A stretch of 64,000 nt of DNA from an uncultured Planctomycetia bacterium (GTDB lineage: Bacteria; Omnitrophota; Gorgyraeia; VGKH01; JBHPFN01). The notes beneath the pieces are model-generated. The model was not told where the DNA came from. It saw only the letters and a list, made by a program, of their open reading frames with translations, and did not search any database. Shown here piece after piece: positions 6,584 to 39,054 of this stretch; position 1 is the stretch's first letter, and the number at the start of each line of letters is the position of its first letter. The stretch covers positions 11,364 through 75,363 of the forward strand of contig CAYOSQ010000007.1 in assembly GCA_964406665.1 (NCBI GenBank). Direction: 5' to 3'. The position numbers were made by a program, and so were the translations under genes.

Positions 6584-7855
6584 TTATCTTCGCTTCTTCA
6601 ATAACTCTTCATATAACTTAATATAGCGCTCTGCCTCTAAAACCGAAGAAAACTCTTCTTCCACCTTCTGTCTTGTTGTTTGAGATAGCCTTTTCATTCG
6701 ATTAGAATTAGAAAGTACCCAGTTAATACCATGCGCTAAATCTGAAGATTCAAACGGCTTGACAAGATAGCCAGTATATTCATGTTTAATCATGTCGGGA
6801 ATTCCACCAATACTAAAAGCGACACAAGGCGTACCGCACGACATTGCCTCCAGAATTGTATTGGGAAAATTATCCTCGACCGACGGAGCCACAAATACAT
6901 CACATGCCGCATAAAGCAATGCCTTGGAGATCTCATCGTGCAAATAACCCATGGAATAAATTTGAGAAGGCCAGTGACCCTGCATGGGCTTTTGCCATGA
7001 GCCAAAAATAACTAAGCCTGGTAATGGTATCTCGTTTTTTTCTTTTAATATTTCAAGCGCAGATTCTAAATATTTATACCCCTTGCGCGGATCACTTAAA
7101 GGATTTACCGCTCCGAAAAGTAATAATTGTTTATCTTGAGGCAAATTAAGAAGCGTTCTTGCTTGAGCCTTAGGAATTTGCCGATAAGTTGCAGTATCTA
7201 CCCCGTTTGGAATGACCTCTATGCGAGCATTGCCGAATAGAGAACTGCGTCTGACGCAAGTAGCAAGCCAGTTGCTTGGCGATACTATAGTCAATGCAGA
7301 AGTATCCCAGCTACGTTTTTTTTGCTTCAATACCCTATATGAAAGATCACAACTGCATTTACTGCCCAATTGGGGACATTGACCGCATTGTTGCTCAAAA
7401 CCCTTACATGAACCTACATAATGACAGCCACCAGTAAAAGGCCACATGTCGGATAATCTCCACACCGCAGGCTTTCCTAACTGTAAAAGATGGCCGATAG
7501 TTTTTACGCCTAAAAATCCTCCACAAATCCAATACAGAGCAATGATATCAGCTTGTTGTACTTGAGACAACTTTTCTACGGGAAATAGTTGAAGCCAACC
7601 AGGATGCCAAACAACCCTTTTTTGTCTACGGGGCCAAGAAAGCAGTGGAAGAAGATCTAGATAGCCAGCAATCTTACTAAGAAACTTTCCCCTAGTCGAA
7701 GTAAATGCCCATTCTACGGTACTATCATCCGAAAGGCCCTTTTGTACCAATCGCTTGCTATCTATCCCTTTTTCCAAGAGAGCTTGATGTAAATGATGCG
7801 ACTCGCGAGCAGCCCCTCCTTGAAGATCGAATGTGTTAAGATGAACAACGCGCAC
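6584..7855 (-). CDS. GT4-family (GT-B fold) glycosyltransferase with a Cys-rich insertion
   Basis: N-terminal MRVVHLNTFDLQGGAARESHHL and C-terminal ...GTPCVAFSIGGIPDMIK...EEF are GT4-like. There is a 7-Cys insertion WPFTGGCHYVGSCKGFEQQCGQCPQLGSKCSC. Confidence 0.75.
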   Translation of the reverse strand: MRVVHLNTFDLQGGAARESHHLHQALLEKGIDSKRLVQKGLSDDSTVEWAFTSTRGKFLSKIAGYLDLLPLLSWPRRQKRVVWHPGWLQLFPVEKLSQVQQADIIALYWICGGFLGVKTIGHLLQLGKPAVWRLSDMWPFTGGCHYVGSCKGFEQQCGQCPQLGSKCSCDLSYRVLKQKKRSWDTSALTIVSPSNWLATCVRRSSLFGNARIEVIPNGVDTATYRQIPKAQARTLLNLPQDKQLLLFGAVNPLSDPRKGYKYLESALEILKEKNEIPLPGLVIFGSWQKPMQGHWPSQIYSMGYLHDEISKALLYAACDVFVAPSVEDNFPNTILEAMSCGTPCVAFSIGGIPDMIKHEYTGYLVKPFESSDLAHGINWVLSNSNRMKRLSQTTRQKVEEEFSSVLEAERYIKLYEELLKKRR

Positions 7856-9554
7856 TGATAAAACACTCCCTTTTTAAATAATCTGAACTTGAATCACATA
7901 GCGCCCATTCTGCAAATTCATATAAATCCTCAGCATTTTTGAGCTCATCCAACGAATGTATCGTTGGTAGTAAATTATGATCAAGTGGATGCACTCCCTT
8001 TTTCTTATAATTAAATTCTGCCTTGAAGCTTTTCATCTCCCACAGACGTAGATTAAAAATCGCATAAGCATGTTTTTTTGCAAGCATCATTTGCTCTTCT
8101 GTTAGCTGAGAAAATTCATGGATATGTTTTAGTTTATCGAGATATTGCTCTCGAGAATCAGAATCAATAGTAAAGCCAAAACCTGAGTACCTTCCCGTCC
8201 CTGCAGTAAAAACCGGCTTCCCGAAACAAGGAAGCTCCATACCCACAGTTCCTCGGACTGTAATACCGTAATCTGCTAACTCAAACAGCGAAAATGAATT
8301 AATGTCAGTATCTGGATGCAGCAAGAATATGTGTGCAGGCAATTCTCCAACTTTTTCTCTTATTAGAAATACCTCTCTTAATTCTCCGGATATCTTCTCG
8401 CGATTCCTCTTCCACACGTTTCCAGGATGAAGTTTAATTATCCAATTTACATTAGGATTTAAAACAGCCACTTTTACAGTTTCAATAAACCATTCCTCAT
8501 AATCCTCGAAAAGATCATCACCATAAAATAAATTAGCATCCCAAAGTATATGAGAAAACAAGACTGCAGTCTTCTTTTGTGAATCTATTCCTAATTGCGA
8601 GACTATCTCTTGCTTACTCTTCTTTTGTTTTCCTTGTTGATTTCTTCGACTCAAAAACCATATCCCTCCATAACGCTTCTCGAATTCATCAAGTACGGCA
8701 CTCTCCTGTTCCTGGCCCCATGGCATTGTCTTTATTTTCTCAAACGTCGAAGGTGAAAGCGAATTTGGATGCGACCCCATCGATTCCTTGTCAAATCGCT
8801 TGAAGGTCACCGCGTCATCTCGCAGTGGTTGGACAAATTGTATTACATCCATCTGTCTATTAAATGCTAAATCGGATATACCACCATATACCGAACCTTT
8901 TGCTTCGTTAAAAATAAGCATATCAGGATTTATTTCATCTAAAAGCATGCCTGAGGCATAAATTGTTTTTATTTCATCACGCAGCAAAAAACCGAAAAGT
9001 TCATGCAGCTTAGGATGAGCTAAATCAGGTGTTCCGTGCAAACGCCTAGCGAATGAGCTTAAAATCTGTTGACCTAAATGACAATTCTTGAACTTCCATT
9101 GCTTCACTTCTTGAAAGCTTATCTTTTTCTGCAAAAATTCTTCCGCGACACCCTCAACCTCCTCATTCTTCACGCGAGAAATAAAATCTTCTAAATATAC
9201 GAATTTACTTATTCCAAAAGATCGAAAATACTTCTGGGGCCAGACGCAATGCTTATAAGTCACAACAGTTATATCACACCCTCGAAGCTGCAAGGCTTTT
9301 GCAAACGTTGCCTCTTTTTTAACCTGATAGAGAAACTGCGTAAGGCTAACTATGCATACTTTTTTATTTATTAATTGCTCTGGAACTTCTTTAAAAAAAC
9401 TAAACTTCTTTTCAAGAATTGCATAATCGTGAACGATAGCCAATCGATGAAGAATGTTCCAATTGTTTTTAATCAATTGCAACTTTAGCTTCAACCACGG
9501 CATACCTGAAATAAATCTTGATAATCTTTCTCTTGCCCTCTTTATAATCATCAC
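7836..9554 (-). CDS. Capsule_synth-family protein (KpsC/KpsS/LpsZ-like beta-Kdo-transferase family), tentative
   Basis: ...VLFSHILWDANLFYGDD...IIKLHPGN... resembles the conserved KpsC/KpsS core (..fPLQvnxDsQi...lvvKhHPxd). The domain boundaries could not be checked. Confidence 0.4.
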   Translation of the reverse strand: MMIIKRARERLSRFISGMPWLKLKLQLIKNNWNILHRLAIVHDYAILEKKFSFFKEVPEQLINKKVCIVSLTQFLYQVKKEATFAKALQLRGCDITVVTYKHCVWPQKYFRSFGISKFVYLEDFISRVKNEEVEGVAEEFLQKKISFQEVKQWKFKNCHLGQQILSSFARRLHGTPDLAHPKLHELFGFLLRDEIKTIYASGMLLDEINPDMLIFNEAKGSVYGGISDLAFNRQMDVIQFVQPLRDDAVTFKRFDKESMGSHPNSLSPSTFEKIKTMPWGQEQESAVLDEFEKRYGGIWFLSRRNQQGKQKKSKQEIVSQLGIDSQKKTAVLFSHILWDANLFYGDDLFEDYEEWFIETVKVAVLNPNVNWIIKLHPGNVWKRNREKISGELREVFLIREKVGELPAHIFLLHPDTDINSFSLFELADYGITVRGTVGMELPCFGKPVFTAGTGRYSGFGFTIDSDSREQYLDKLKHIHEFSQLTEEQMMLAKKHAYAIFNLRLWEMKSFKAEFNYKKKGVHPLDHNLLPTIHSLDELKNAEDLYEFAEWALCDSSSDYLKRECFISARCSS

Positions 9555-12021: not shown

Positions 12022-12585
12022 TTAATAATGATCCGGTGGATATAGATGTTTAACACATTCAACGTTTAAACTCATATAAACACCATTGTCAAAATCCTTG
12101 TGCGGCCAATATGCTTTAGAGAAATCATCAACATTTGCATGTTCGGTTTTTCTCCAATCATATTCCACCACGCGCTTAAACCCTGCCTCTATTAAAAGAG
12201 TTTTAAGTCCAGAAAATGCAAACTGCCTGTAGTGGATATTCGTATCGGTCTCTGATCCCCCGTATATCCAGTTTAAAAGATTTTCATAGTCACCTGATCT
12301 TTTATAAACCTCAACAGTGCCTTCCCAATCAGGAACAGCCATTCTTAACACCCCTCCTGGTTTTAATACGCGGTTCCATTCAAGGAGAGTTTTAAATGTC
12401 TTTGGTCTTGGCAAATGCTCTAAAACATGGCAGGCATATATCAGATCCACTGAGTCTTTTTCAAAAGAATCCAGCTTAGAGATATCGCACTTTATGATAT
12501 CAGCACCGGGGACATCTCTAATATCAATATTAGTAAATCCTTTTAGAATCTTATCCCCACAACCTAAATGCAGTTTTTTTGCCAT
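12022..12585 (-). CDS. Class I SAM-dependent methyltransferase (Methyltransf_11/23-like)
   Basis: Motif I LHLGCGDKILKGFTNIDI, an acidic loop, and motif post-I LKPGGVL. Confidence 0.75.
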   Translation of the reverse strand: MAKKLHLGCGDKILKGFTNIDIRDVPGADIIKCDISKLDSFEKDSVDLIYACHVLEHLPRPKTFKTLLEWNRVLKPGGVLRMAVPDWEGTVEVYKRSGDYENLLNWIYGGSETDTNIHYRQFAFSGLKTLLIEAGFKRVVEYDWRKTEHANVDDFSKAYWPHKDFDNGVYMSLNVECVKHLYPPDHY

Positions 12586-16381: not shown

Positions 16382-17392
16382 TCACTTTCTTTCGATAATA
16401 TTCTCTTGTCGGTATGTTTCGATAATTTCAAATCTGGGCTCCTTAATATTTTCCACCTTCTTAAAAACACACCATACGTTCCAATCAGGATCAATAGATT
16501 GCGTCACGCACGATTCTATTCGCTGAAAAAAACCAACGAATTTTCTGAATTGATTAAAACCTCTTTCGCCTAAAAGTACCTGCAGACGATTTTTTATTGA
16601 AGACTTTCTTTGCTGAATAACTTCTTGATTAATCTGACTCGCATCACTTTTTTTTCGCTTTTTTTTAGAGAGAACTAAATTGACAATGTTTTGTTTTCCT
16701 AAAGTAATGCGGAGCAAAGCAGTGACAATGAACTTACGAAAATGATAGAACAAAAAGAATCGAAAAGGAATGATAGCGCCGATCCAGGTTACCTTATATT
16801 TTGTAGGTACGTAAGGAATAGCATGGCCCCTTTTATTCTGCATAATCGCTTTCTCTAAGACAAAACCATTAGCCCTGTAGAAATCGATTAAGAAATTGGG
16901 CGATGGATTTAAATAAAACCTGTTCGTCATATCTCCCAACACTGAAACAACCATAATTTTTCCGCCAATTTTAACCATGCTGGCAGTGTTGAAAAATGCC
17001 TGGATTGCATTCATGGCATAATGCGCTGATACATTAAGCATGAAATCATATTTATTCTCTAGTTCACTAGGAATAGGATAATTTAAATTGAATAAAACGT
17101 CTGCTCGTTTATTTATATCAAGCTCTTCATAAATCTTATACCCATAATGTTGAAACAATTTTGCGCAAAGTCGCTTGCTTGATCTATTTCTCTCTTCTCC
17201 AATTGCAGAATAGTGATTTTTTAGATCATCATCTTTAATGGTATTAATACCGTATTTTTTCAAACAGTTTTTCGTAACATGAAAATCCATAGTTCCAATA
17301 GTCAAAAACTTAAGATCTCTACCTGCAATCTCAGGCCTTATACTGCCTTCTAGTACATTAAAAGCATTAACTAAAGAATTTGCAACACCCAT
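16382..17392 (-). CDS. Hypothetical protein (possibly a Rossmann-like modifying enzyme)
   Basis: 336-aa ORF tightly packed between neuC and neuB. No confident motif. Confidence 0.45.
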   Translation of the reverse strand: MGVANSLVNAFNVLEGSIRPEIAGRDLKFLTIGTMDFHVTKNCLKKYGINTIKDDDLKNHYSAIGEERNRSSKRLCAKLFQHYGYKIYEELDINKRADVLFNLNYPIPSELENKYDFMLNVSAHYAMNAIQAFFNTASMVKIGGKIMVVSVLGDMTNRFYLNPSPNFLIDFYRANGFVLEKAIMQNKRGHAIPYVPTKYKVTWIGAIIPFRFFLFYHFRKFIVTALLRITLGKQNIVNLVLSKKKRKKSDASQINQEVIQQRKSSIKNRLQVLLGERGFNQFRKFVGFFQRIESCVTQSIDPDWNVWCVFKKVENIKEPRFEIIETYRQENIIERK

Positions 17393-17394
17393 AA

Positions 17395-18429
17395 TTACAC
17401 CTTTTTAACCAACATACTGTCTTTAATCTTTGTATTAGCCGAAATATCTATTTTTGTCTCTCTTCCGATAATTTCCCTATATCTATCAGCTCGTATACCA
17501 TCACCGGGCTTTTTGAAAGCCAACTTATCAAAAGTAATTTCCTCGCCTTTTGGAATATCCTGCTTAGCAACAATGCTTTTCTCAAAAACGACCTTAATTC
17601 CTTTTAACTCTTCAACAAGCTGATCTTTATTCACATTTAAGAAATTTTTATCATCAACAACTCCTAAAGCACCATCTTTGACTTCTTCTACAAATTTACT
17701 GAATTCATCAGGAAGCAATGAATGCTTTGCATCAGAACCCTGCAAATTCTGTGATAAAGTAAGGTGCCGCTCAATAACTTCAGCCCCTGAAGTAATTGCT
17801 GCAAATGAGGCATCGTTTTTGAGCGTGTGATCAGAAAACCCAACTCGACAACCATATCGCTGCTTCATTTCAGGCATTATGTTTATCCCAACCTTATTTT
17901 CTGGGCACGGATACAGCGAGGTACACTGCATTACTGTTAAATCTACACATCCGCTGCTTCGTAATGTTTCTACAGCATTATCTATCTCTTTCCATGAGCT
18001 CATTCCGGATGAAAGTAAAACAGGCTTCCCTAATGGGCCGATTTTCTCCAACAATGGTAAATTTGTAACTTCTCCTGATGGTATTTTATATCTCTCAACC
18101 CCAACATCTTCTAATAAATCAACGGCTTCAAGAGAAAAAACTGACGACATAAATTCAATATTGCGCTTCTGTGAATACTCCCTTAGCTCTTTCCATTCTT
18201 CTGCTGTAAAAGCTGTCCGCTCAAGATAATTTTTACGGCTTTCCTGTGCATAAAAACTTGGCGTAGGAGCATCGGGTAAACTTTCAGCATCAAAAATATG
18301 TGTTTGAAACTTAACCGCATCTGCTCCACACTCAGCAGCAGTTTTTACAAAATCTTTGGCTGACTCTACTGAACCATTATGTAGATTACCAACCTCAGCA
18401 ATTATAAAGATACTATTTTTCTCAGCCAT
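17395..18429 (-). CDS. neuB: N-acetylneuraminate (nonulosonate) synthase
   Basis: IFIIAEVGNLHNGSVESAKDFVKTAAECGADAVKFQTH is the NeuB TIM-barrel signature. The C-terminal SAF-like domain ...KQDIPKGEEITFDKLAFKKPG... is present. Confidence 0.9.
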   Translation of the reverse strand: MAEKNSIFIIAEVGNLHNGSVESAKDFVKTAAECGADAVKFQTHIFDAESLPDAPTPSFYAQESRKNYLERTAFTAEEWKELREYSQKRNIEFMSSVFSLEAVDLLEDVGVERYKIPSGEVTNLPLLEKIGPLGKPVLLSSGMSSWKEIDNAVETLRSSGCVDLTVMQCTSLYPCPENKVGINIMPEMKQRYGCRVGFSDHTLKNDASFAAITSGAEVIERHLTLSQNLQGSDAKHSLLPDEFSKFVEEVKDGALGVVDDKNFLNVNKDQLVEELKGIKVVFEKSIVAKQDIPKGEEITFDKLAFKKPGDGIRADRYREIIGRETKIDISANTKIKDSMLVKKV

Positions 18430-19741
18430 TTTTCACACAAAAATTACGTTTTTTAGACTTCTGTGAATATTGTTCCATATAAACGGGAGATAACTTAGCT
18501 CCTGATTGCTTAATCCATGCATAGTTAGACAAGTTAGACACCGGGAGATTATCTTTTTCAATGGAATATGGATGCTCTAAATCTACAATAAACTGTCTTA
18601 CCGCGCTATCGATTTCTTGTGCACTATTACTTTCTAAAGTCGCATTCTCAAATACATATTTGTAAAGATGTTCAGAAAGAAGCTTTTCAACCTCAATCAG
18701 TTCTCCCTGAGAATCTCTCAATGTTTTATAGTATATCCACGAATATGGCTGTCCATACCCAAAAGGAAACGCATTCAAGATTAAGCGTGGAATTCTATTA
18801 ACTCCGGAAAGCCAAACTCCGCCTCCACTATCACCAACAAAAATATCAGCTTCAGTAGCAGCAAAAAGATAGAAGAAATCCCTGTCAACATGAATAACCT
18901 TATAATCAATGAGTTTACCACCAAATTTATTTATGAATTTATCATCAACCTCTACATCTCCAGTAAGCAGAACCTGATATCCTTGACTATTGAGAAATTC
19001 AATCGCGGGAACATAATCCATAAGATCAGAACCAGCTCGTGATGAAGAAGTAATATCATGGGCATCTTTATTTTTTTGCCTTAAATACAAACAGCATAAT
19101 TTGTGATTTTCAATTCCATTTTTTGCTAAAAAATCCTTTATCTTTTTGCGTATTTTTTTACAATTATTTTCTGGTAAAAAGACTCTACCAGAAGAATCGT
19201 TTTTCATTAGATTAAAATATCCTATAACCCATCGGCAGGTTATTTCATAACCTGCCCCATTCAACGACTCAGGTAAAACAGAGTTATCTTTATGCAAAAT
19301 TATTTTATACATATCTAACATATAATTAATCTTTGCCTTTTTATTCAAAAATCGAGTATATTTCAAGAATAACCTATGTATATTTGACTTATACCAATCT
19401 GACACTGGAAACGCCCTAGCAATTCCCCTTAGTCGAATACCAAAATTCAACGGGAAAAAGACAATGCGCACATCTTTCCACATCAGAGAAATTTTTCTAT
19501 TGTGCCGTCCGCACTCTGAAAAAATTACAAAAATATTATTCTTTTTTGGATATAGCCTTCTTAATATATCTGGCGCGGTAACAGTATGCCCAAAACCACC
19601 TTCCGGCATAATAGTAATAGAATCTGCTTTAACTATCTTCGGAATAACTATAAAACCTTTAACAATAGAATACAAAAAGCAAAAAATTGTATTTACTATT
19701 TTAAGAAAAAATATGATTATAGACTTAATAAATCTTTTCAT
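18422..19741 (-). CDS. Putative GT-B-fold glycosyltransferase of an uncharacterised family, with an N-terminal TM anchor
   Basis: N-terminal TM segment, then a glycine-rich ...TIMPEGGFGHTV... and a later ...FVGDSGGGVWLSG... reminiscent of GT-B nucleotide-sugar sites. Its position beside neuB makes a nonulosonate transferase possible but unproven. Confidence 0.35.
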   Translation of the reverse strand: MKRFIKSIIIFFLKIVNTIFCFLYSIVKGFIVIPKIVKADSITIMPEGGFGHTVTAPDILRRLYPKKNNIFVIFSECGRHNRKISLMWKDVRIVFFPLNFGIRLRGIARAFPVSDWYKSNIHRLFLKYTRFLNKKAKINYMLDMYKIILHKDNSVLPESLNGAGYEITCRWVIGYFNLMKNDSSGRVFLPENNCKKIRKKIKDFLAKNGIENHKLCCLYLRQKNKDAHDITSSSRAGSDLMDYVPAIEFLNSQGYQVLLTGDVEVDDKFINKFGGKLIDYKVIHVDRDFFYLFAATEADIFVGDSGGGVWLSGVNRIPRLILNAFPFGYGQPYSWIYYKTLRDSQGELIEVEKLLSEHLYKYVFENATLESNSAQEIDSAVRQFIVDLEHPYSIEKDNLPVSNLSNYAWIKQSGAKLSPVYMEQYSQKSKKRNFCVKNG

Positions 19742-19748
19742 ATCCTTA

Positions 19749-20681
19749 TCAACTTTTAACTGCCTTAATGATTTCTTTTAAATCAATGACATCCATACAA
19801 TGCTTTTTTTGTTTACACTTAAAAGAATAACAAGGTAAACACTTATACATAGTTTTAGGCTTTATAACTATCCCTCTGCCGTAGAGATATACTTCTTTTT
19901 CATCAGTCGCACCAAAAAGGGTAATCACTTTCTTCTTAAATGCTAATGCCAAATGCAGGCCTAAGCTATCACTTGTTACAATAGTCTTACAAGAATTAAT
20001 CCAATCCATATAATCGTAGAGATTGTCCATTCCTTTTTGCCAAGAAACAGATAATTTATCTTTTTTTAGAAGTTTTTCTAGTTCTTTCCACTTTTTTGCG
20101 TTCATAGCTTTTGTAGGCCATTTCGAACCAACATAATAGTTAAAACCAACATCATACTTATTCTTTGTCTTTGGCTTATACCCGAGAGAATACTCTTGCT
20201 CTTTCCACTTCCCTCCGATCATTTCAACAATAATCTTCTGCCAGATGTTTCTTTGCCCTTTGGAAGCTTTTTCTGTAATGTATTCCTTAGCCACCATAGA
20301 CTGCATATAAGTATCATAAATACCTGTCTGAGAATTGAATCTAAAACCAATCCTTTCCCAAGCATCAATCATATCTGTTAATGCGCAAACGCCATCAATC
20401 TTTTCCAAATTGATAACAATGTCATATTTCTCACGCATAAGCACATAAGGAATAAACTCATCCCAGACTAAAAGCCTATCAATATGCTTATTGTTATTAA
20501 CTAAAGGAACTGCTTCGTTAGAGATAAGCCAGGTAATGTGCGAATTAGGGAACCTTTTCTTCAAAGGCTCTAAGATTACTGTACAGCGCACTACGTCGCC
20601 TAAGCTTACCACTTTGGTCATTTCCTGATCAAGAGTCTCAGAATAACCCATCTTTATTATTAATATTTTTTTATGTTCCAT
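19749..20681 (-). CDS. GT9-family glycosyltransferase (ADP-heptose:LPS heptosyltransferase-like)
   Basis: ILIIKMGYSETLDQEMTKVVSLGDVVRCTVILEPLKKRFPNSHITWL and VTSDSLGLHLALAFKKKVITLFGATD match RfaC/RfaF-type GT9. The true start is probably the internal Met MEHKK at 20681; the track ORF extends to 20729. Confidence 0.7.
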   Translation of the reverse strand: MEHKKILIIKMGYSETLDQEMTKVVSLGDVVRCTVILEPLKKRFPNSHITWLISNEAVPLVNNNKHIDRLLVWDEFIPYVLMREKYDIVINLEKIDGVCALTDMIDAWERIGFRFNSQTGIYDTYMQSMVAKEYITEKASKGQRNIWQKIIVEMIGGKWKEQEYSLGYKPKTKNKYDVGFNYYVGSKWPTKAMNAKKWKELEKLLKKDKLSVSWQKGMDNLYDYMDWINSCKTIVTSDSLGLHLALAFKKKVITLFGATDEKEVYLYGRGIVIKPKTMYKCLPCYSFKCKQKKHCMDVIDLKEIIKAVKS

Positions 20682-20685
20682 CTTA

Positions 20686-21624
20686 TTACCCTTTCCTGAA
20701 GATATAGTTCTCTTGTTTATCGTATTCACTTGGTGTTTTAGTTTTTTCCGAAGCTACAATTGCAAATCCTTTACTCTTTAAAATCTCCATAACTTTTTTA
20801 TGTTCTTTGAGATTATCAAAAAGTTCTATGTATATCTCCTGGACATAATTAAGTGTTTTACTTAAACCTTCGGTTACCATAAGTTCATTTGTATCAACAT
20901 CAATTTTTAACTTTGTAGGATAGGGTAGCTTAAATAATTTAATCATATCATCTATATTCATGCAAAAAGTATCCAGCTTAAACATATCTTTTTCATTAAT
21001 GTTAAATAATGGTTTTCTACCAACAGTATTTAAAGCTCCTCCTTTAGAAAATTCCCGTATATAAAAAGGTTTTAAAGCTGTAGTATCATCACAAGCTATG
21101 GGTACCGGAGTAATTAAATCATTCATTCTGTTTTTATAAATATTTGAATAAAGTGTTTGTAGATTGTTTATTTCTGGTTCGAATGCATACACCTTTACAC
21201 CCTTTGTTTTAGCAGCGTATAATGAATAACCACCTATGTTAGCTCCCACATCAAAGAAAATATCATCTTTTTTAAAAGAATCTATCCATTCAACCATAAG
21301 CTTTTCTTCCGTAAGCAAAGTTTGCGCCCTCCAAACCAACCTACCGTGCCCTGTGGAAAAGATAAGCTTTTCATTATTTGGTAACTTAACTTTTATTACC
21401 GGATCAAGCATTTGTTGAATTTCAACATATAAACGATTATTGCTGTTAAGCCTAAACATGACAATAATAACTTTTGCTAAAGTTCTTATAAATTTCACTA
21501 AAAAGCTAGGTTTATATCCATATTTTCCATCTTTTTTACTATCCGGTGATGGATATAGTAAATTATTTAACTTATCCTTAAAAGTCATAGCAAACCTTTC
21601 TTTTATTCTAGAATTCCTGACCAA
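20686..21624 (-). CDS. FkbM-family methyltransferase
   Basis: FFDVGANIGGYSLYAAKTKGVKVYAFEPEINN is the FkbM (Methyltransf_21) signature. Confidence 0.75.
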   Translation of the reverse strand: MVRNSRIKERFAMTFKDKLNNLLYPSPDSKKDGKYGYKPSFLVKFIRTLAKVIIVMFRLNSNNRLYVEIQQMLDPVIKVKLPNNEKLIFSTGHGRLVWRAQTLLTEEKLMVEWIDSFKKDDIFFDVGANIGGYSLYAAKTKGVKVYAFEPEINNLQTLYSNIYKNRMNDLITPVPIACDDTTALKPFYIREFSKGGALNTVGRKPLFNINEKDMFKLDTFCMNIDDMIKLFKLPYPTKLKIDVDTNELMVTEGLSKTLNYVQEIYIELFDNLKEHKKVMEILKSKGFAIVASEKTKTPSEYDKQENYIFRKG

Positions 21625-22448
21625 GGCAAAACAACAGAAATGTCTTTAGTATCCTTAAGCTTATGCTTAATTTCTGCCTGAATATCTTTATTATTGCTGC
21701 ACACCACAATAACGTCCCCATTTTTAAAATTTTCCACTCTTGGCAAGCGAAAGATTTTCTCGAACTTTCCTTTATAGCTATCGTCAAAATAGAAACAAAT
21801 TCCTCTATCTAAATTATTTCCTTGAACGAGCTCCTTAAATAAAGCCTGAAAATAATAAGAAACACCATAAAAAATGATTCGCTTGCCTTCAGAAGCCTTC
21901 TCACTTACTTTTTTTATAATTTCAGCTTTATTTATTTTAAACTTATCGAATAATGGTTTAACGTCAATTCTATCGCTGCCAGATTTCAGACTCTGTTTAT
22001 CTTTTCTAGCTAACACTCTTAAGAAATTTTTAGTATCACTATAGCAAATCTTAAAACCTTCTAAAGTATCTGATAAAGAACTAAGGTTAAAAAAGCTTAC
22101 GTGCTCAGGAGAAAAGTCTTCAACAAGAAATTCAAGAGAGTTATTCAAATATGGAATTTCGATAAAAAGTAATCCGTCATCATGCAATATTTCTTTTGCT
22201 TCAGCAATGATATTCTTCGAATTCTTCAAATGCTCTAAAGTATGATCTAAAATAATCAAATCGAATTTATAATCAAAAATGTCTTCTCTAAATTGTTTCT
22301 TTATTGTTGGTACTGATACATCGATATTCGCAGGATCAACACCCAAAATTTCCACAGAAGGATTCTTTTCCTTAATCATATACAAAATATCACCGCGGTT
22401 TGAGCCAATTTCTAAGATTTTAATATTTTTTTTTAGGCAACTTTCCAA
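21603..22448 (-). CDS. C-methyltransferase-like protein, SAM-binding plus C-terminal domain; the 3-prime fragment of a gene split by an A9 tract
   Basis: KILEIGSNRGDILYMIKEKNPSVEILGVDP...IILDHTLEHL is class I MT motif I/II, as in TylC3/NovU-type sugar C-methyltransferases. The ORF has no ATG; the track start is a TTG. Confidence 0.6.
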   Translation of the reverse strand: MESCLKKNIKILEIGSNRGDILYMIKEKNPSVEILGVDPANIDVSVPTIKKQFREDIFDYKFDLIILDHTLEHLKNSKNIIAEAKEILHDDGLLFIEIPYLNNSLEFLVEDFSPEHVSFFNLSSLSDTLEGFKICYSDTKNFLRVLARKDKQSLKSGSDRIDVKPLFDKFKINKAEIIKKVSEKASEGKRIIFYGVSYYFQALFKELVQGNNLDRGICFYFDDSYKGKFEKIFRLPRVENFKNGDVIVVCSNNKDIQAEIKHKLKDTKDISVVLPWSGILE

Positions 22449-22725
22449 TAATTAAATTAACTTTATCAATATTTTCTCTACTTCTTCTGGGAAACTCGAA
22501 TAAATCACTTTTTCTAAATTCTGCATAAACCTTTTTAATTATTTCATCATATTGCTTAGAATAAGCACTCCCCTGAAATACATAACCACAATCTTTACAC
22601 TGACTAATTAAAAACATCATGCTTCTTTCACTATTGGAAAAATACGCGCTTTCACTAGAATACACTTCCTCTAAATTAGAGCTTTCACACAGCGGACAGA
22701 TTGTACCTACTTTATTTTTTTTCAT
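22420..22725 (-). CDS. Zinc-ribbon N-terminal module (CPLC...CKDC) of the same C-methyltransferase-like gene; the 5-prime fragment
   Basis: C-x2-C ... C-x2-C Zn-ribbon, as found N-terminal to sugar C-methyltransferases. It ends in ...LPKKKY at an A9 run (22426-22434 on the + strand). Deleting one A fuses it in frame to 21603-22448. Confidence 0.5.
   Translation of the reverse strand: MKKNKVGTICPLCESSNLEEVYSSESAYFSNSERSMMFLISQCKDCGYVFQGSAYSKQYDEIIKKVYAEFRKSDLFEFPRRSRENIDKVNLIIGKLPKKKY
22426..22434. repeat. Homopolymeric T9/A9 tract at the junction of the two C-methyltransferase fragments
   Basis: Nine consecutive T (+ strand) seen directly. A -1 change restores a single ORF. Confidence 0.8.
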
Positions 22726-22728
22726 TGC

Positions 22729-23835
22729 TTAGATATATTCCATCAATTTCATACAATCCTTAACAATAATGTCCATATTGTCATAGTGGTATTTACCCAT
22801 CCTGCCAATGGAATAACAATCTTCTGGTAACAAAGCAAGATACTTATTGGCTTTTCTTATTTCCGATTTAAGTGGATAAGGATAAAGCTTGTTACCGAAA
22901 GATGGAAATTCAACCACTATTAATGTATCTGGAGATTTATATCCGGTCAAAAGCTTATATTCCATAACCCTTGTATAGGGCTCATCACCTGCATAATGCA
23001 AATAGTAATACGGCTCCGGGGTAACCTGCTTACAAGGTAAGATTATCTTTAAGAAGTCTCTACCGATATATTTAAGCTCACCGAATTTATAATCAAACAC
23101 CAGATCTATCGATGCTGAAGAAACAACAATATCAGCCGAAAACCACTTCCCCTTAACTAAAACTCTCTTTTTCTTTAAATTGAATTTCTCTACATAAGAA
23201 TTATAAATCACCTTACAACCTTCAACACATCTATCAAAATAAGAGTTATACCCATCAAGCTCAACTGGATAGGCAATAATCTTCTTCTTATCAAAGCATT
23301 GCTTAGAGCCCTGCTTTAATGCAACGCCTTTTGGAGAGAAAGAAAATTCATCTATGCTTCTGTTGTCTTTCATTTGCCACATCTTTTCAGAATATTTATG
23401 TATAAATTTATCATAAAGCGTTTTTCCCACAGAACGGATCCAGTAATCTTCAAAGTTTTTTGCAGATTTGATATCCTTTCTCTTTAGAAGCTCTCTATAA
23501 ACCCTATCTTTATCTGGCATACCATTAATCTCAGCTTTGTGAATTGGATATGTATAAAACTTGTTATCATCAGATACATAAGTTAAACAATGGTGTTTAA
23601 GTTTGCGTAACTTCAAAAATTTACTGAAATAATCCCAAACATACATCTCCTTCAGATCAATCAGAAGATGGCGTGGTCCGTAAGTGAAAGGATGACCATG
23701 ATAGAAGTACGTTCTACACCCTCCTCCTAGCTCATGACTTGCCTCCACAATTGTTACGTTAAAACCTTTTTGCTTTAACATATATGCGGCAGTGCAACCG
23801 GCAAATCCACCGCCAACTACCAAAGCTTTTTTCAT
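22729..23835 (-). CDS. glf: UDP-galactopyranose mutase
   Basis: MKKALVVGGGFAGCTAAYMLKQKGFNVTIVEASHELGGG (FAD site) and FDYKFGELKYIGRDF ... GRMGKYHYDNMDIIV are collinear with E. coli Glf. Confidence 0.85.
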   Translation of the reverse strand: MKKALVVGGGFAGCTAAYMLKQKGFNVTIVEASHELGGGCRTYFYHGHPFTYGPRHLLIDLKEMYVWDYFSKFLKLRKLKHHCLTYVSDDNKFYTYPIHKAEINGMPDKDRVYRELLKRKDIKSAKNFEDYWIRSVGKTLYDKFIHKYSEKMWQMKDNRSIDEFSFSPKGVALKQGSKQCFDKKKIIAYPVELDGYNSYFDRCVEGCKVIYNSYVEKFNLKKKRVLVKGKWFSADIVVSSASIDLVFDYKFGELKYIGRDFLKIILPCKQVTPEPYYYLHYAGDEPYTRVMEYKLLTGYKSPDTLIVVEFPSFGNKLYPYPLKSEIRKANKYLALLPEDCYSIGRMGKYHYDNMDIIVKDCMKLMEYI

Positions 23836-23866
23836 ACCCCTAACTCCTTAAGATTAATTTAAATCC

Positions 23867-23898
23867 AGATTGTTATATAACATGTTATATAACAATCT
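23867..23898. promoter_or_regulatory. 32-bp perfect palindrome AGATTGTTATATAACATGTTATATAACAATCT in the only sizeable gap (61 nt) of the long operon
   Basis: Reverse complement verified by hand; it is identical on both strands. It lies between the stop of the FkbM MT (23897) and the glf start (23835), about 30 nt upstream of the glf AAGGAG SD. Confidence 0.5.
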
Positions 23899-24850
23899 AT
23901 CCGGAAAACTTTTCATAAAACTTATTTGATTTAGGGAATTCCTCATCAAATAAATTCTTATATGTTGAATAAACCTCATTCTTATTTGTAGATGGAAGAG
24001 ATAGCATATATTTAAATAAAAACGCGATCTTTTCTTTTAATTTCTTAAATAACGGATCGTTTTTAAAACCATCAAATTTAACTTTTTTCTGATCTTTTGC
24101 TCGCTGCATTAAATAAATCGCAATATCAGTTGCATTATTATTCATAAGAAACAACCCCAGCAAAACAACGTTCTCTGCAATTTTTGTGCTATTTTGCTTA
24201 AAAATAATCTCCGGATCTCTGATCCACACTGTCTCACACCCAATTAGTTGTCCATATTTATTCGGAAGGGTGAACTTGCTTAATGCGTGGCCTCGTCCAT
24301 CATAGTTTAGGTTTATTAATTCGAATTTATGCTCTTTTAAGAAATTATGAATGTCTCCAAATAAAGGTGCACCTATATATACCGGAAGAAAATATGTCTC
24401 CAGCCTAATACCCAATACAGTTGAGTCGAGAACGCTTTCTGCTCCTTTTAGAACCTCTAATTCTGTTCCCTCTGTATCGATTTTTAAAAAATGAATATCT
24501 TTATTATGAAATATCGAATCAATTGTTTTAACTGCTACTTTCTTCTCCGAAACAATATCGGCTTCATTTACCATAAACATTTTCTTTTTTCTTAAGGCAG
24601 AATCATTGCTCAAGATTGAGCTTAAGCCATTATGAGCTCTTTGCTTAAAGTTCACCTTACCATCAGAGCTATAGAGCCCCTGGGAATAAACTTCAATATT
24701 CCTATTATCCGCATATTTTTTCCTTAAACGCAAAGCTTCTTTAAAATCCATTTCAAATAGATGAAAATTAGCAATGTCACACAGCTCTTTCCATGTTGGA
24801 TGCAACCCGTAACGCGCTCCCACATCAATAACATTACATTTTAATTTCAT
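23897..24850 (-). CDS. FkbM-family methyltransferase
   Basis: NVIDVGARYGLHPTWKE ... FkbM-type motif. 317 aa. Confidence 0.7.
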   Translation of the reverse strand: MKLKCNVIDVGARYGLHPTWKELCDIANFHLFEMDFKEALRLRKKYADNRNIEVYSQGLYSSDGKVNFKQRAHNGLSSILSNDSALRKKKMFMVNEADIVSEKKVAVKTIDSIFHNKDIHFLKIDTEGTELEVLKGAESVLDSTVLGIRLETYFLPVYIGAPLFGDIHNFLKEHKFELINLNYDGRGHALSKFTLPNKYGQLIGCETVWIRDPEIIFKQNSTKIAENVVLLGLFLMNNNATDIAIYLMQRAKDQKKVKFDGFKNDPLFKKLKEKIAFLFKYMLSLPSTNKNEVYSTYKNLFDEEFPKSNKFYEKFSG

Positions 24851-25929
24851 TTTTTGACTTCCTTTCTTGATTTAACATAGCAAAATTTACAGGCGCCTGG
24901 AATATTCATATCTAGATGTTTTTTTCTAAAATCTTTATATTGCTTAGAATTCCAAATTGATTTCAAATCACCCAACTTACCTAAACAAAAAATGTCAGGA
25001 TTACCTATCATGCAACAAGGTACAACCTTTTTATCCGAAGAAATAAAAGATCTCTCAAACGGCCAGGGACAAATGTTGTCTTTCGAATATTTTGTGGTAA
25101 TATCCCAAAATGATAAGTTTATATTTTCCTGGGCTGCCTGGTCTAACAAACTATCGATGTCTGATTGAGTGACGGCATTTGAAATGCGCTTAATTTTATT
25201 TTTCTTATCCCACTCTTTACTTCCCCATGCGCTTACATCTAAACTTATGGTTAATCTTTTGAATCCCAGTTTTTTCGCAAAAGTTGGGAATTTATGAAGC
25301 TCTTTAAAATTATCCTTTTGCAAGAGAGCCCACATTCTCGTTTTGTCAGTCCCAAATTTGTCGCAATACTCATTTATAAGCTTGCAGTTTTCTACAACAC
25401 GCTTAAAACGTGCGCCTTTTCTAATATTCTCATAAACGGATTTCGTGGTCCCATCTATGGAAATCTGCACTTCTCCATTAATAAAATCAACTATCTTCTT
25501 ATAATAGTCATTCTTATGGATTACAGTTGCATTTGTAGTAGTCCTAACCCAGATATCTTTCGCACTTGCATACTTAACCATCTCAATAAAATCGTCCTGC
25601 AGAAATGGCTCTCCCAGACCCTGAAGCTTAAGCTCGAAAACTCCTACTTGGTCATCAATAATTCTTTTGAAATCATCAAAACTAAGATCTGAGGCCCTCT
25701 TTTTTGATTTAAATGTTGATACCTGGCACATATCACAGCTTAAATTACACCTACTAACGTTCTCTATATCTAACTTAACAGGTAAATAATTAGGCTCTAT
25801 TGAGGTTTTCGAATTCTTGAATTTTTTATAGTTCTCATAACGCCCAGGGAACCTTTCAAAGCCCCGCTCTAAAGTTTCATTATAGGCAGCAAGGTCCGCC
25901 GAAGGTTTAGGAAATTTAAGCTTTTTCAT
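24847..25929 (-). CDS. Radical SAM enzyme with a C-terminal SPASM/twitch-like Cys cluster
   Basis: CNLSCDMC (CxxxCxxC), GLGEPFL glycine-rich SAM motif, and C-terminal CPWP...CCMIGNPDIFCLGKLGD...ACKFC. Confidence 0.8.
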   Translation of the reverse strand: MKKLKFPKPSADLAAYNETLERGFERFPGRYENYKKFKNSKTSIEPNYLPVKLDIENVSRCNLSCDMCQVSTFKSKKRASDLSFDDFKRIIDDQVGVFELKLQGLGEPFLQDDFIEMVKYASAKDIWVRTTTNATVIHKNDYYKKIVDFINGEVQISIDGTTKSVYENIRKGARFKRVVENCKLINEYCDKFGTDKTRMWALLQKDNFKELHKFPTFAKKLGFKRLTISLDVSAWGSKEWDKKNKIKRISNAVTQSDIDSLLDQAAQENINLSFWDITTKYSKDNICPWPFERSFISSDKKVVPCCMIGNPDIFCLGKLGDLKSIWNSKQYKDFRKKHLDMNIPGACKFCYVKSRKEVKK

Positions 25930-26731
25930 ACTCTATCCTTTGCCTAACCCAAGTTCTCAAAACTTCCTCTGAATTATTGGGGAAAAAATTGTATTTTTTT
26001 TGTGCCTTTTTAATCGATAAGTTAAAAAAGTTTCTATGCCTTTCTTCAATTAGTAGCTTAGACGGAGAATTAAGCTTGTCTTTAACAATTTCAATTACTT
26101 CTTTCAATGTTTTGTCTTTATTCGATGCTAAATTAATTACGTCAAATTTTTCTTTCAAATACAAATTACTTACGAACCTAAATATATCCTCTATTGATAT
26201 AAAATTGTTAAAGATTCTATCTGAATTAAATATCTCAACGTGTTCTTCTTTTAATAACTTTAAGAAACTTCTAGAAAGCAAGTTTGTTTCATTTTTAAAA
26301 CTTAGTATTGCAGGAAAGCGCAAACATAAACAATCCAATTCACTACTCTCTAGCATATCCTCACCTAAAAGCTTAAGCGCGCCATACAAACAAGGAGTCA
26401 AGCCGATATCATCTTCACATACGTTTTCCTTATCAATATCTCCATAAACTGAAGCTGCAGAGAAAAAAATCAGTTCTTTTATTTTATTCTTTTCAGCAAA
26501 ATTAATTACTTTCTTAAGAAAAGCTATGTTAGATTCATGCATTTCTGAATCAGTGGCAGGTGGCGATTTAGCTGCTAAATGTAAAATTCTTTTAGCACTT
26601 ACATCTTGATTCAAATCTAACGGTGCGATATCTGCCCCAGAATCTTTAAACAGCTTATACAAAACGGAGCCTACGCCACCAAGATGCCCTGTCATTAATA
26701 TTTTTTCCATTTGCTTACTCCTTTTAAACAA
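25916..26731 (-). CDS. NAD(P)-dependent epimerase/reductase (short extended-SDR, RmlD-like)
   Basis: ILMTGHLGGVGSVL (Rossmann), SAASVYG, LYGALK (YxxxK). Confidence 0.6.
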   Translation of the reverse strand: MFKRSKQMEKILMTGHLGGVGSVLYKLFKDSGADIAPLDLNQDVSAKRILHLAAKSPPATDSEMHESNIAFLKKVINFAEKNKIKELIFFSAASVYGDIDKENVCEDDIGLTPCLYGALKLLGEDMLESSELDCLCLRFPAILSFKNETNLLSRSFLKLLKEEHVEIFNSDRIFNNFISIEDIFRFVSNLYLKEKFDVINLASNKDKTLKEVIEIVKDKLNSPSKLLIEERHRNFFNLSIKKAQKKYNFFPNNSEEVLRTWVRQRIEYEKA

Positions 26732-27845
26732 AATCTAAATGCTCTCTGTCAGCATTTAGATATTCTAAAATCATCCTGTTTTTTGCATCTGCCACACAAT
26801 GATGATTACAAACCAAAGTTGGATTAATCTTAAAAAACTTGTCTTTACTACTAAACCAAAAATCCTTAAACCTTTTATCCTTTATTGTTCCTATTAAACC
26901 ATCTGCAAGATTATATGCCTTATCCTGACAAGGATAAATATTTAAATCTGCCCCTATAACCGGTAAGATTTGCAAATACGGGCACCATTTATACTTCTTT
27001 TCAAATCCATCTTCAAGCTCATGATATGAATCATAAATCTCAAAAGAATCATCTGCGAATTCTTCACTTGCTCGATTAATTTGACATTTTATAAGATCCA
27101 AAAGAGACTTGTGATACTTTTTATTTTTTTCCGCAGAATTACTGATAACACACGGGGAAACTTTAACGCTGTCAATTTTAATTTTTTTTAGCTTTTCAAT
27201 AAAATCAAATATGTGATTAGCATTATATTTATCAACTATAATCACTACACCTAAATAGCAGTTTCCTTTAATTCTTTTAAAATCTTCCATGTTTTTCATT
27301 ATCTTGGGAAACTCATCTTTCTTCACTCCTCTGTATTCTGCATAGCTTTCTTCATCCCAACCATCCATTGAAACCCTAAGCCAAGTAGCATTCTTGGCAA
27401 ATATTTCGGCAATTTCCCCTTCAAGCAAAGAACCATTGGTAAGCGCAGAAAATTTAATTGATGTCTTAGATAGCTTTTTTATAGTTTCTAGAATATGTGG
27501 ATAGCAAAACGGCTCTCCCCCTCCGCTAAAAGTAACTGCTTTAACTCCCATTTCAACTAAATCATCAATAATTTCAAACATTTTATCTCTAGGGATAAAA
27601 TCTTTCTTAGACATATCCTGTCCGAGTTGAAGATCATCTGTCTTATAAGCACAATAACTACAGTTATGCTGACACGTATTAGTAGGCTTTATCCTGATGT
27701 GTAGTGGTGATAATATTTTTGAATTTTCTTTTACAAGAGAATCAAGCTTGTCTTTGAAATGAAATATCTTAAGCTTCGTATAGAGAATTTTCTTATTTTT
27801 CATTTTATTCAAAATATATAAACTCAAAATCTCCGCTGTAGTCAA
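26724..27845 (-). CDS. Radical SAM enzyme (SPASM-like C-terminus)
   Basis: CQHNCSYC (CxxxCxxC), FSGGGEPF, and C-terminal CPY...YPCQD...CNHHC. Confidence 0.8.
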   Translation of the reverse strand: MTTAEILSLYILNKMKNKKILYTKLKIFHFKDKLDSLVKENSKILSPLHIRIKPTNTCQHNCSYCAYKTDDLQLGQDMSKKDFIPRDKMFEIIDDLVEMGVKAVTFSGGGEPFCYPHILETIKKLSKTSIKFSALTNGSLLEGEIAEIFAKNATWLRVSMDGWDEESYAEYRGVKKDEFPKIMKNMEDFKRIKGNCYLGVVIIVDKYNANHIFDFIEKLKKIKIDSVKVSPCVISNSAEKNKKYHKSLLDLIKCQINRASEEFADDSFEIYDSYHELEDGFEKKYKWCPYLQILPVIGADLNIYPCQDKAYNLADGLIGTIKDKRFKDFWFSSKDKFFKINPTLVCNHHCVADAKNRMILEYLNADREHLDFV

Positions 27846-38922: not shown

Positions 38923-39054
38923 AATTTCAAAAGTACCTTTCAATGAAATAGTTACAGGTATATTGTATAGCTCTGTAAGAAAAATATCAAGCTAAGCTAC
39001 GATTATCTATTTTTTTGTTGCCAGCTTAACATTTATAGTATATGATTTGATAAT

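Follow-up and report, generated by a model that had tools for sequence, protein, structure and literature searches.

A nine-adenine run divides a putative sugar methyltransferase gene in an uncultured marine bacterium, probably by a recent slipped-strand frameshift

In the 64-kb stretch of DNA analysed here (the window), a methyltransferase gene is divided by a run of nine adenines (A9) into two open reading frames, ORF1 and ORF2. The division is a real frameshift in a gene of about 373 aa and forms the consensus in a near-clonal marine population; it probably arose by recent strand slippage, and the gene would now be a young pseudogene or a locked OFF allele. It is inactivation of an ordinary kind, and nothing shows the A9 run acting as a switch. 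The sequence-only reading had named three options, a phase-variable switch, a fixed pseudogene and a homopolymer sequencing error. The fixed frameshift turned out to be the best supported of these, and no positive evidence and no length variant were found for the phase-variable switch.

Both ORFs are on the minus strand (Table 1), the sense A9 corresponding to T9 on the plus strand. ORF1 includes the motifs CPLC (residues 10–13) and CKDC (residues 43–46) and ends with ...LPKKKY*, its TAA stop being located two codons past A9. The frames of ORF1 and ORF2 are open together only in a stretch bounded by one TAA in the ORF2 frame (22452–22454) and another in the ORF1 frame (22420–22422); the frame change must therefore be located within this stretch, in which A9 is the sole repeat. 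Removing one A (A8) gives ...GKLPKKNIKILEIGSNRGD... and one ORF of 373 aa, adding two (A11) gives one ORF of 374 aa, and A10 leads to a stop (...KKKILKS*). The position of the run, the 101-aa ORF with its two cysteine motifs and its C-terminus, and the 373-aa product of a one-A deletion were thus all as first described from the sequence. The description of ORF2 as starting from TTG and having no ATG was right for the first start codon only, as an in-frame ATG is present at codon 24. The 258-aa product starting from this ATG is without motif I (LEIGSNRGD).

Table 1. Features of the split methyltransferase gene, with positions in the window.
Feature	Position	Strand	Description
ORF1	22420..22725	-	101 aa N-terminal fragment, four-Cys zinc ribbon (C10, C13, C43, C46) and two helices
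A9 homopolymer	22426..22434	-	Frameshift site; Lys-Lys-Lys in the ORF1 frame
Dual-open stretch, ORF1 and ORF2 frames	22423..22451	-	29 nt; read directly from the sequence
ORF2	21603..22448	-	281 aa from TTG, +1 frame relative to ORF1; SAM-binding Rossmann and C-terminal alpha/beta domain
Motif I LEIGSNRGD	22389..22415	-	SAM-binding glycine-rich loop; begins 3–4 residues past the frameshift site
Internal ATG, ORF2 codon 24	22377..22379	-	Start in the ENA/NCBI gene calls, 258 aa product

The homologues support ORF1 and ORF2 as one ancestral gene consisting of a Zn-ribbon, a SAM domain and a C-terminal domain, the order proposed from the sequence. The 18 close homologues were single proteins of 342–404 aa (all but one 360–404 aa) covering 89–100% of the fusion, and 93–100% for those of 360–404 aa. 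Also at the genomic level, 20 of 20 orthologous loci from several phyla, retrieved with motif I as a peptide pattern, had one uninterrupted ORF and not two separate ORFs, and none of the 20 had a poly-A run at the frameshift site. Among the family representatives (197 with E ≤ 1e-30), nearly all of the 150 listed were full length, 358–410 aa. A single-cell genome of Candidatus Omnitrophota included a collinear locus with an intact 382-aa gene and the same neighbours; this synteny, the sole taxonomic evidence, makes the marine bacterium a probable relative of Omnitrophota.

ORF1 and ORF2 are frameshifted halves, each without visible decay. Their mean identities to the family (0.38 for the N-terminal and 0.42 for the C-terminal part) are at the level of intact members, and all invariant residues are kept. 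As both halves look undecayed, the frameshift is likely to be recent, even though their perfect preservation fits equally well a gene still used by way of reversion or recoding.

One unrelated family member, L046, is frameshifted independently in the same linker region, approximately 14 residues further upstream, resulting in overlapping ORFs of 87 and 288 aa. It hints that a split in this inter-domain region may be tolerated; L046 is a single contig which may itself be a pseudogene or an error, and the way in which short hits were picked favours splits near the N-terminus. An apparently split homologue (L047) proved to be a gap of N's.

The AF2 model of the fused protein (pLDDT 90.4, pTM 0.89) showed a fold of three domains with the NDP-sugar-binding domain at the C-terminus. 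In the Foldseek search against PDB, the top 18 matches were all MtmC, KijD1 or TcaB9, aligned over the full length including the N-domain (approximately 420 columns; E 1e-20 to 1e-17, TM 0.70–0.77), and no other fold was found above TM 0.4. The profile-to-PDB sequence search gave MtmC (1e-12) and TcaB9 (5e-11), the identity to TcaB9, KijD1 and MtmC being only 14–18%. TylC3, NovU and EryBIII are known homologues of these three NDP-4-keto-sugar C3-methyltransferases. The modelled fold supports the gene product as a distant relative of the TcaB9-type sugar C3-methyltransferases; the predicted enzyme may accordingly carry out C-methylation rather than O-methylation, probably of an NDP-ketosugar.

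The individual domains were in line with the fold. Pfam Methyltransf_23 matched residues 81–222 (8.3e-15), a class I SAM-dependent Rossmann domain, and L104 to D112 (LEIGSNRGD) formed invariant or nearly invariant columns in the family alignment, as did the four zinc-domain cysteines C10, C13, C43 and C46. The part encoded by ORF1 aligned to the N-terminal domain of TcaB9, with the second CxxC opposite the TcaB9 'RCDSCEMV', which agrees with its first interpretation as a methyltransferase Zn-binding module, although PF08421 did not match it. In the HMM alignment, H165, E207 and H208 (fusion numbering) were opposite H181, E224 and H225 of TcaB9, and both H165 and H208 were invariant in the family; Y222 of TcaB9 was not conserved, being S205 in the fusion. 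PF08421 (Methyltransf_13, Zn domain) matched none of 19 family members and PF08484 (Methyltransf_14, C-terminal) only one of 19 (6.5e-5), and neither matched the window protein at E ≤ 1. Because these two profiles fail to match, the family is placed as a distant sister group. The proposed TylC3/NovU type thus stands for fold and profile but not for the word 'typical'. The order of domains is that of TcaB9, KijD1 and MtmC: the four-Cys Zn domain comes first, the class I SAM Rossmann domain follows, and the alpha/beta domain is at the C-terminus. Unlike in these three, the gene is frameshifted, and its setting is a Gram-negative operon for surface glycans, shared with Glf and radical-SAM/SPASM enzymes, instead of an antibiotic deoxysugar pathway.

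A9 was present exactly in 17 of the 17 fetched loci (≥99.9% identity). These represented 15 distinct contigs from at least 12 metagenomes or samples besides the window record, and they derived from five JGI metagenomes, seven ENA assemblies and two Logan runs, i.e. from three pipelines. The contributing data sets were SRR8062344, SRR8062331, the runs of SAMN10231893/903/904/913/914 and SAMN11854489/493, and JGI 3300007510, 3300009008, 3300009332, 3300009374 and 3300009405. The exact 101-aa product of ORF1 was found on at least 12 contigs. Exact look-ups among approximately 15 billion proteins found the A9 product and none of the predicted A6, A7, A8, A10, A11 and A12 products, and no fused protein was found with a junction-spanning query of the protein collection; both were added because the homologue search was not exhaustive, having missed the existing 101-aa ORF1 cluster. 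A scan of metagenome_contigs with the tract flanks and run lengths 5–14 gave no matches, the A9 contigs themselves being evidently missing from that collection. No other tract length was thus present in the assemblies, which represent the majority allele only and would keep a minority A8 or A11 hidden. In one apparent variant, the 95-aa length of ORF1 resulted from a gap of N's in the scaffold.

The population is almost clonal, with approximately 0.2–0.4 SNP per kb and sequences ~99.9–100% identical, and the A9 consensus may therefore mirror one recent lineage. Most of the few SNPs were nonsynonymous, and this held for the neighbouring genes as well as for the split gene; at this level of identity, selection tests are without power.

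A/T runs of 6, 7, 8 and 9 nt numbered 187, 73, 23 and 1 in the window. The 8-to-9 count ratio was 0.043 in comparison to 0.32–0.44 at the shorter steps, and one run of at least 9 nt was observed against approximately 7–10 expected (P(≤1) ~3e-4). This lone run is the frameshift site. The run counts rule out the A9 tract as a chance feature, and the genome otherwise avoids A/T runs of ≥9. The shortage fits the 9-nt threshold of selection against slippery runs, and such under-representation is also found in the genomes of Baranov et al. 2005 (PMC1088944). All 23 A8/T8 runs fall in, or at the start of, intact ORFs and no frameshifts are associated with them; one A8 run is located in the split gene itself, just after the ORF1 start codon (22715–22722). 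Homopolymer interruption of any further gene was not detected in the window. Two candidates for further split genes were rejected: the 187-aa methyltransferase at 12022–12585 has its motif I at the N-terminus and is intact, and the 271-aa epimerase is of the same length as its orthologues.

Under the preferred explanation, a slipped-strand length change in the poly-A tract, most simply from A8 to A9 or alternatively from A11 to A9, would have put the single gene of ~373 aa out of frame. Standard decoding would then produce the 101-aa Zn-ribbon fragment, and the predicted enzyme would be off or nearly off, because the SAM-binding and C-terminal domains would be left without a credible independent start. 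The scan did not find a Shine-Dalgarno sequence upstream of the ORF2 TTG, which is weak evidence as only 22 of the 52 genes have a match of at least 4 nt; the codon-24 ATG, preceded 10 nt upstream by a weak GGTGA, is the sole SD-like start for ORF2. Promoters and terminators above the shuffled expectation were not found in 20500–24000. Replication slippage could physically revert the gene, and transcriptional slippage (-1 or +2) could rescue it at a low level; either would be incidental. The locus would offer a clean case of a very young homopolymer frameshift as the consensus allele of an uncultured population in the wild, and this in a genome otherwise purging A/T runs of ≥9; the heterogeneity of tract length in nature could be measured from the public reads.

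Homopolymers are a classic site of indel errors, and three contigs (L001, L007 and L012) end within ~50 nt of the run. However, an error of sequencing or assembly, with a true A8 and an intact gene, is so improbable that it can be dismissed: the same A9 was recovered in all 17 loci and the window record by JGI, ENA re-assemblies and Logan, no product of alternative length was present in the protein collection, and the 23 A8/T8 runs of the window are without frameshifts. A 3-SNP haplotype nearby accounts for the contig breaks, and both haplotypes have A9. Slippage in a genuine A9 could also flip the methyltransferase between ON (A8 or A11) and OFF (A9) and thereby vary the surface glycan, with the samples dominated by the OFF state and the downstream operon genes perhaps affected through polarity. 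This is unlikely rather than implausible. The longest homopolymer of the window, in a genome otherwise avoiding such lengths, sets the reading frame from within a glycan-modifying gene of a surface-polysaccharide operon, the gene is intact apart from the tract, and the A8 run after the start codon adds another repeat. Genes of this class typically undergo phase variation in Campylobacter, Helicobacter, Neisseria and Haemophilus. The intragenic homopolymer, the polysaccharide locus and the OFF frame reached through a single-unit length change are all shared with the phase-varied capsule and LOS genes of Campylobacter and the LPS glycosyltransferases of Helicobacter. Unlike in these, there was no length polymorphism, all 17 loci being A9 at the consensus level and alternative products absent, and the host is an uncultured free-living marine bacterium. 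The poly-A is only 9 nt long, near the lower length limit for efficient slipped-strand switching; it is absent from the site in all 20 orthologues, and while contingency loci usually occur in sets, the split gene is the sole homopolymer-interrupted gene in 64 kb.

Full-length protein could alternatively arise in a useful fraction by recoding, either by RNA polymerase slipping on A9/T9 or by the ribosome shifting +1 on AAA-AAA-AAA; this is very doubtful. Programmed recoding cases are conserved, but the tract and the split organisation were present in none of the 20 orthologous loci, which differs also from the IS-element and dnaX/mxiE cases, and a stimulatory Shine-Dalgarno or structure for frameshifting was not evident at A9. 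Ribosomal frameshifting of -1 was rejected, as the -1 frame gives KKKILKS*. Recoding has two points in its favour, the perfect preservation of both halves and a tract of nine A/T, the length at which slippage turns efficient in many bacteria (PMC1088944). In Thermus thermophilus dnaX, an A9 run results in mRNAs with 8, 10, 11 and 13 A's, and disrupted ORFs with 9A/9T runs, restorable by slippage, have been catalogued (PMC1088944). The window gene resembles these ORFs in having a 9-nt A run at the frame break and in a length change restoring a conserved ORF, but only -1 or +2 restores its frame, whereas the usual +1 insertion, the commonest homopolymer slippage product (PMC5574713), gives A10 and the stop. 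Ribosome sliding, again, is robust at A11 but merely slight at A9 or A10 (PMC4363877). A functional enzyme in two pieces, with the Zn-ribbon and catalytic fragments both made and assembling non-covalently and the split being tolerated or neutral, is highly improbable. In the model the break falls in a surface loop at the domain boundary, between helix 83–95 and strand 102–106, the TTG-started ORF2 retains motif I, and L046 is split in the same linker region. Against this, the TTG is without a Shine-Dalgarno, the SD-like ATG costs motif I, the listed family representatives are nearly all single chains, and L046 is subject to the reservations given above. Taken as a working expression control, i.e. 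a contingency switch or -1/+2 RNA-polymerase slippage, the A9 tract would provide a tunable small amount of a TcaB9-fold methyltransferase, which is decidedly unlikely. If so, a surface or N-linked glycan would be methylated to a varying degree, and L046 would suggest that the family has been repeatedly throttled at the Zn-domain/Rossmann junction.

In annotations, ORF1 and ORF2 ought to be entered as a single frameshifted methyltransferase gene and not as a 'hypothetical protein' next to a 'class I SAM-dependent methyltransferase'. The gene belongs to a long surface-glycan operon on the minus strand, together with Glf, FkbM methyltransferases, a GT9 glycosyltransferase, NeuB/NeuC/NeuA and radical-SAM enzymes. 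Within the TcaB9-type sugar methyltransferases, the family forms a distant branch that is still uncharacterised. Its members occur in several phyla, magnetotactic Nitrospirota and Magnetococcales among them, and are accompanied by a Glf-like mutase, a radical-SAM/SPASM enzyme, an epimerase/reductase and FkbM methyltransferases. This company points to an undescribed pathway for a branched or methylated sugar.

The frameshift that interrupts the methyltransferase gene is real, a slipped-strand event at the region's single long poly-A tract. The minus-strand reading of 21400-22900 and the ORF listing bore out the description in the sequence-only reading, two ORFs and a run of nine A's, and also the single-A deletion giving a protein of about 373 aa. 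When the tract was edited in silico, one A fewer produced a 373-aa ORF with the junction ...GKLPKKNIKILEIGSNRGD..., two A's more a 374-aa ORF, and one A more a stop (...KKKILKS*). The frame is thus restored by a change of -1 or +2 only, and a -1 ribosomal shift would be ineffective. The downstream ORF had been described as having no ATG, which did not hold: an in-frame ATG is present at codon 24 of ORF2, and some gene callers choose it, resulting in a 258-aa call in which motif I is removed.

Features of the split methyltransferase gene (positions in the window)
Feature	Position	Strand	Description
ORF1	22420-22725	minus	101 aa; CPLC at residues 10-13, CKDC at residues 43-46; C-terminus ...GKLPKKKY*
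A9 run (T9 on the plus strand)	22426-22434	minus	three Lys codons of ORF1
ORF2	21603-22448	minus	281 aa, +1 frame, first codon TTG; start reads MESCLKKNIKILEIGSNRGD...
Zone with both frames open	22423-22451	minus	sole repeat inside is the A9 run

The search with the frame-restored (fused) protein identified 18 close homologues. Their lengths are 342-404 aa, 360-404 aa if one of them is set aside, and they have 30-45% identity and cover 89-100% of the fusion. In the family alignment the break in frame lies within a short, variable linker, three to four residues upstream of the invariant motif I LEIGSNRGD. The linker length resulting from A8 is inside the natural range, and that from A11 is the commonest length. 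A scan of species-representative genomes yielded 20 orthologous loci from Omnitrophota, magnetotactic Nitrospirota, Magnetococcales, Desulfobacterota, Arcobacter/Halarcobacter, Latescibacterota and Bdellovibrionales. The comparison of orthologues proposed in the sequence-only reading showed one unbroken ORF across the site in all 20 loci and a poly-A run at the site in none; at the tract position the nearest orthologue reads CTA CCT AAG GAG AAG CCT. When 1.84 billion cluster representatives were searched with a profile, 197 family members were found at E ≤ 1e-30, and among the 150 of these that were listed nearly all were end-to-end matches of 358-410 aa. The locus of a Candidatus Omnitrophota single-cell genome (L014) is collinear with the window, and the corresponding gene there, of 382 aa, is intact. 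Identity to the window proteins is 42% for this methyltransferase, 70% for rSAM, 60% for the epimerase, 66% for rSAM-SPASM, 58% for one FkbM, 74% for Glf, 65% for the other FkbM, 80% for GT9 and 66% for NeuB.

Exact-sequence look-ups found the 101-aa and 281/258-aa products on many contigs. The 17 fetched loci represented 15 distinct contigs, from five JGI metagenomes, seven ENA assemblies (distinct BioSamples) and two Logan runs, and were 99.9-100% identical to the window. All 17 had exactly A9, in both of two haplotypes that lie three SNPs apart just downstream of the tract; assemblies show the majority allele only, which applies to all these counts. The predicted A6, A7, A8, A10, A11 and A12 products were absent from a collection of roughly 15 billion proteins, and a junction-spanning query found no fused protein. 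Since A9 was present in all the loci and products of other lengths were absent, random sequencing error, one of the options offered earlier, is excluded, and so is random assembly error. In every population sampled A9 is the consensus allele, and it interrupts a conserved sugar methyltransferase gene of the TcaB9 fold.

On one JGI contig (the L001 haplotype) three SNPs were clustered within 45 nt at 22353-22397, directly downstream of the tract: one replaces R by S in motif I, one replaces K by N, and the third is synonymous. The population SNP density was about 0.2-0.4 per kb. The ends of three contigs, at 22411, 22464 and 22475, are also no more than about 50 nt from the tract. The cluster and the contig ends could reflect a strain haplotype, errors at contig ends or reads that are locally heterogeneous. 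Another difference between otherwise identical contigs was found at 23857-23944 (L002 1772-1869, L042), where about 90 nt at the 3' terminus of the upstream FkbM gene and in the spacer that precedes Glf were not alignable and the FkbM product had 320 instead of 317 aa; the segment is small and either hypervariable or the site of an indel.

The G+C content of the window is 34%, and it includes 187, 73, 23 and one A/T runs of lengths 6, 7, 8 and 9, respectively, and none longer. The ratio between successive lengths was 0.32-0.44 up to 8 and then 0.043; about 7-10 runs of at least 9 were expected (P(≤1) ~ 3e-4), and the frameshift site is the sole one in 64 kb. Each of the 23 A8/T8 runs is inside an intact ORF or right at its beginning. 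The pattern matches the signature of Baranov et al. (PMC1088944), according to whom genomes with slippery 9-nt A/T runs select against them, and the sharp cut-off at length 9 implies selection against A/T runs of at least 9 in this genome. A second long run, A8, is situated right behind the start codon of ORF1 (22715-22722; ATG AAA AAA AAT), so that two of the longest homopolymers of the region are in one gene.

Homopolymer frameshifts are a known kind of event, and this methyltransferase gene is another case of it. The split gene is probably a young pseudogene or an OFF allele; of the three earlier readings, that of a fixed pseudogene is the one favoured. The dN/dS ratio was powerless because the population is near-clonal. 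Every invariant family residue is kept in the fused protein, which has no long branch; its mean identity to relatives (0.38 in the N-terminal and 0.42 in the C-terminal part) is comparable to that of intact members, and neither half has gained stop codons despite the 34% G+C. With halves so undecayed, the frameshift is either recent or compensated. A phase-variable switch is possible, but its key test, tract-length polymorphism, gave no positive evidence either among the 17 loci, all A9 at the consensus level, or in the protein collection.

Compensation by recoding, in which transcriptional slippage or ribosome sliding would rescue the full-length enzyme, is possible but probably minor. Slippage on A9 is well documented in Thermus dnaX, with mRNAs of 8, 10, 11 and 13 A's (PMC1088944). 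Transcriptome-wide, however, homopolymer slippage consists mostly of +1 insertions, deletions being rarer (PMC5574713), and in this gene +1 leads to a stop; ribosomes slide robustly at A11 but just slightly at A9 or A10 (PMC4363877). Neither was any sign of programmed rescue detected, as the tract is conserved in no relative, which was the key test. Independent translation of ORF2 lacks support: its TTG has no Shine-Dalgarno sequence, which is weak evidence when a clear one precedes just 22 of the 52 genes, and the codon-24 ATG has a weak one but loses motif I. Another family member (L046 2778-3867; JGI 3300031541, Ga0321331_1002752) apparently carries a frameshift of independent origin in the same Zn-domain/Rossmann linker, about 14 residues further upstream, giving overlapping 87-aa and 288-aa ORFs at a site with no long homopolymer, just an A4 run and a GAGAGA repeat. 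This single contig, from a search route biased towards N-terminal splits, hints that splitting in this linker may be tolerated.

The protein is a member of a distant, uncharacterised branch of the TcaB9-type sugar methyltransferases. Pfam gave generic class I methyltransferase domains only (Methyltransf_23 at 8e-15, residues 81-222). The C-methyltransferase-specific models PF08421 and PF08484 matched none and one of 19 family members, respectively, and neither matched the window protein. The best matches of the family profile were the solved sugar C3-methyltransferases MtmC (1e-12) and TcaB9 (5e-11, query 28-286). In the confident AlphaFold model of the fused protein (pLDDT 90.4, pTM 0.89) the break is in the loop joining helix 83-95 to the first Rossmann strand 102-106. 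Foldseek against PDB placed MtmC, KijD1 or TcaB9 in all of places 1-18 (E 1e-20 to 1e-17, TM 0.70-0.77, about 420 aligned columns, 14-18% identity), followed by matches to the Rossmann domain alone (E ~1e-8, TM ~0.3). His181 and Glu224-His225 of TcaB9 align with the family-conserved H165 and E207-H208, whereas its Tyr222 is not kept. The earlier label TylC3/NovU-like thus stands for architecture and probable chemistry, on fold and profile matches; C-methylation is the predicted reaction.

The gene is part of an operon on the minus strand that is tightly packed and extends from about 35 kb to about 3 kb. The operon also encodes an ABC exporter, four radical-SAM enzymes, a two-piece transketolase, several methyltransferases, an epimerase/reductase, a Glf-like mutase, two FkbM methyltransferases, a GT9 glycosyltransferase, NeuB, NeuC, a CMP-sugar cytidylyltransferase and further glycosyltransferases. 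The promoter and terminator scan around the gene gave no signal above shuffled expectation, and early termination of ORF1 could therefore act on downstream genes by polarity. At 21603-27845 and in loci L014-L030 the methyltransferase family accompanies a Glf-like mutase, a radical-SAM/SPASM enzyme, an RmlD-like epimerase/reductase and FkbM methyltransferases. This grouping, which recurs in Omnitrophota, magnetotactic Nitrospirota, Magnetococcales, Desulfovibrio relatives and Arcobacter, suggests that they share a modified-sugar pathway as yet undescribed. A B12-binding radical-SAM methyltransferase-like protein (37513-38943), an AglJ-like glycosyltransferase (47958-49313) and an STT3/PglB-like oligosaccharyltransferase (54415-56883) hint that the window has an N-glycosylation system close to the glycan operon. 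Three sizeable operon genes of 439, 336 and 572 aa (18422-19741, 16382-17392 and 7836-9554) had no Pfam match at E ≤ 1e-5; the first two are kept in the single-cell genome locus L014, at 41% and 68% identity.
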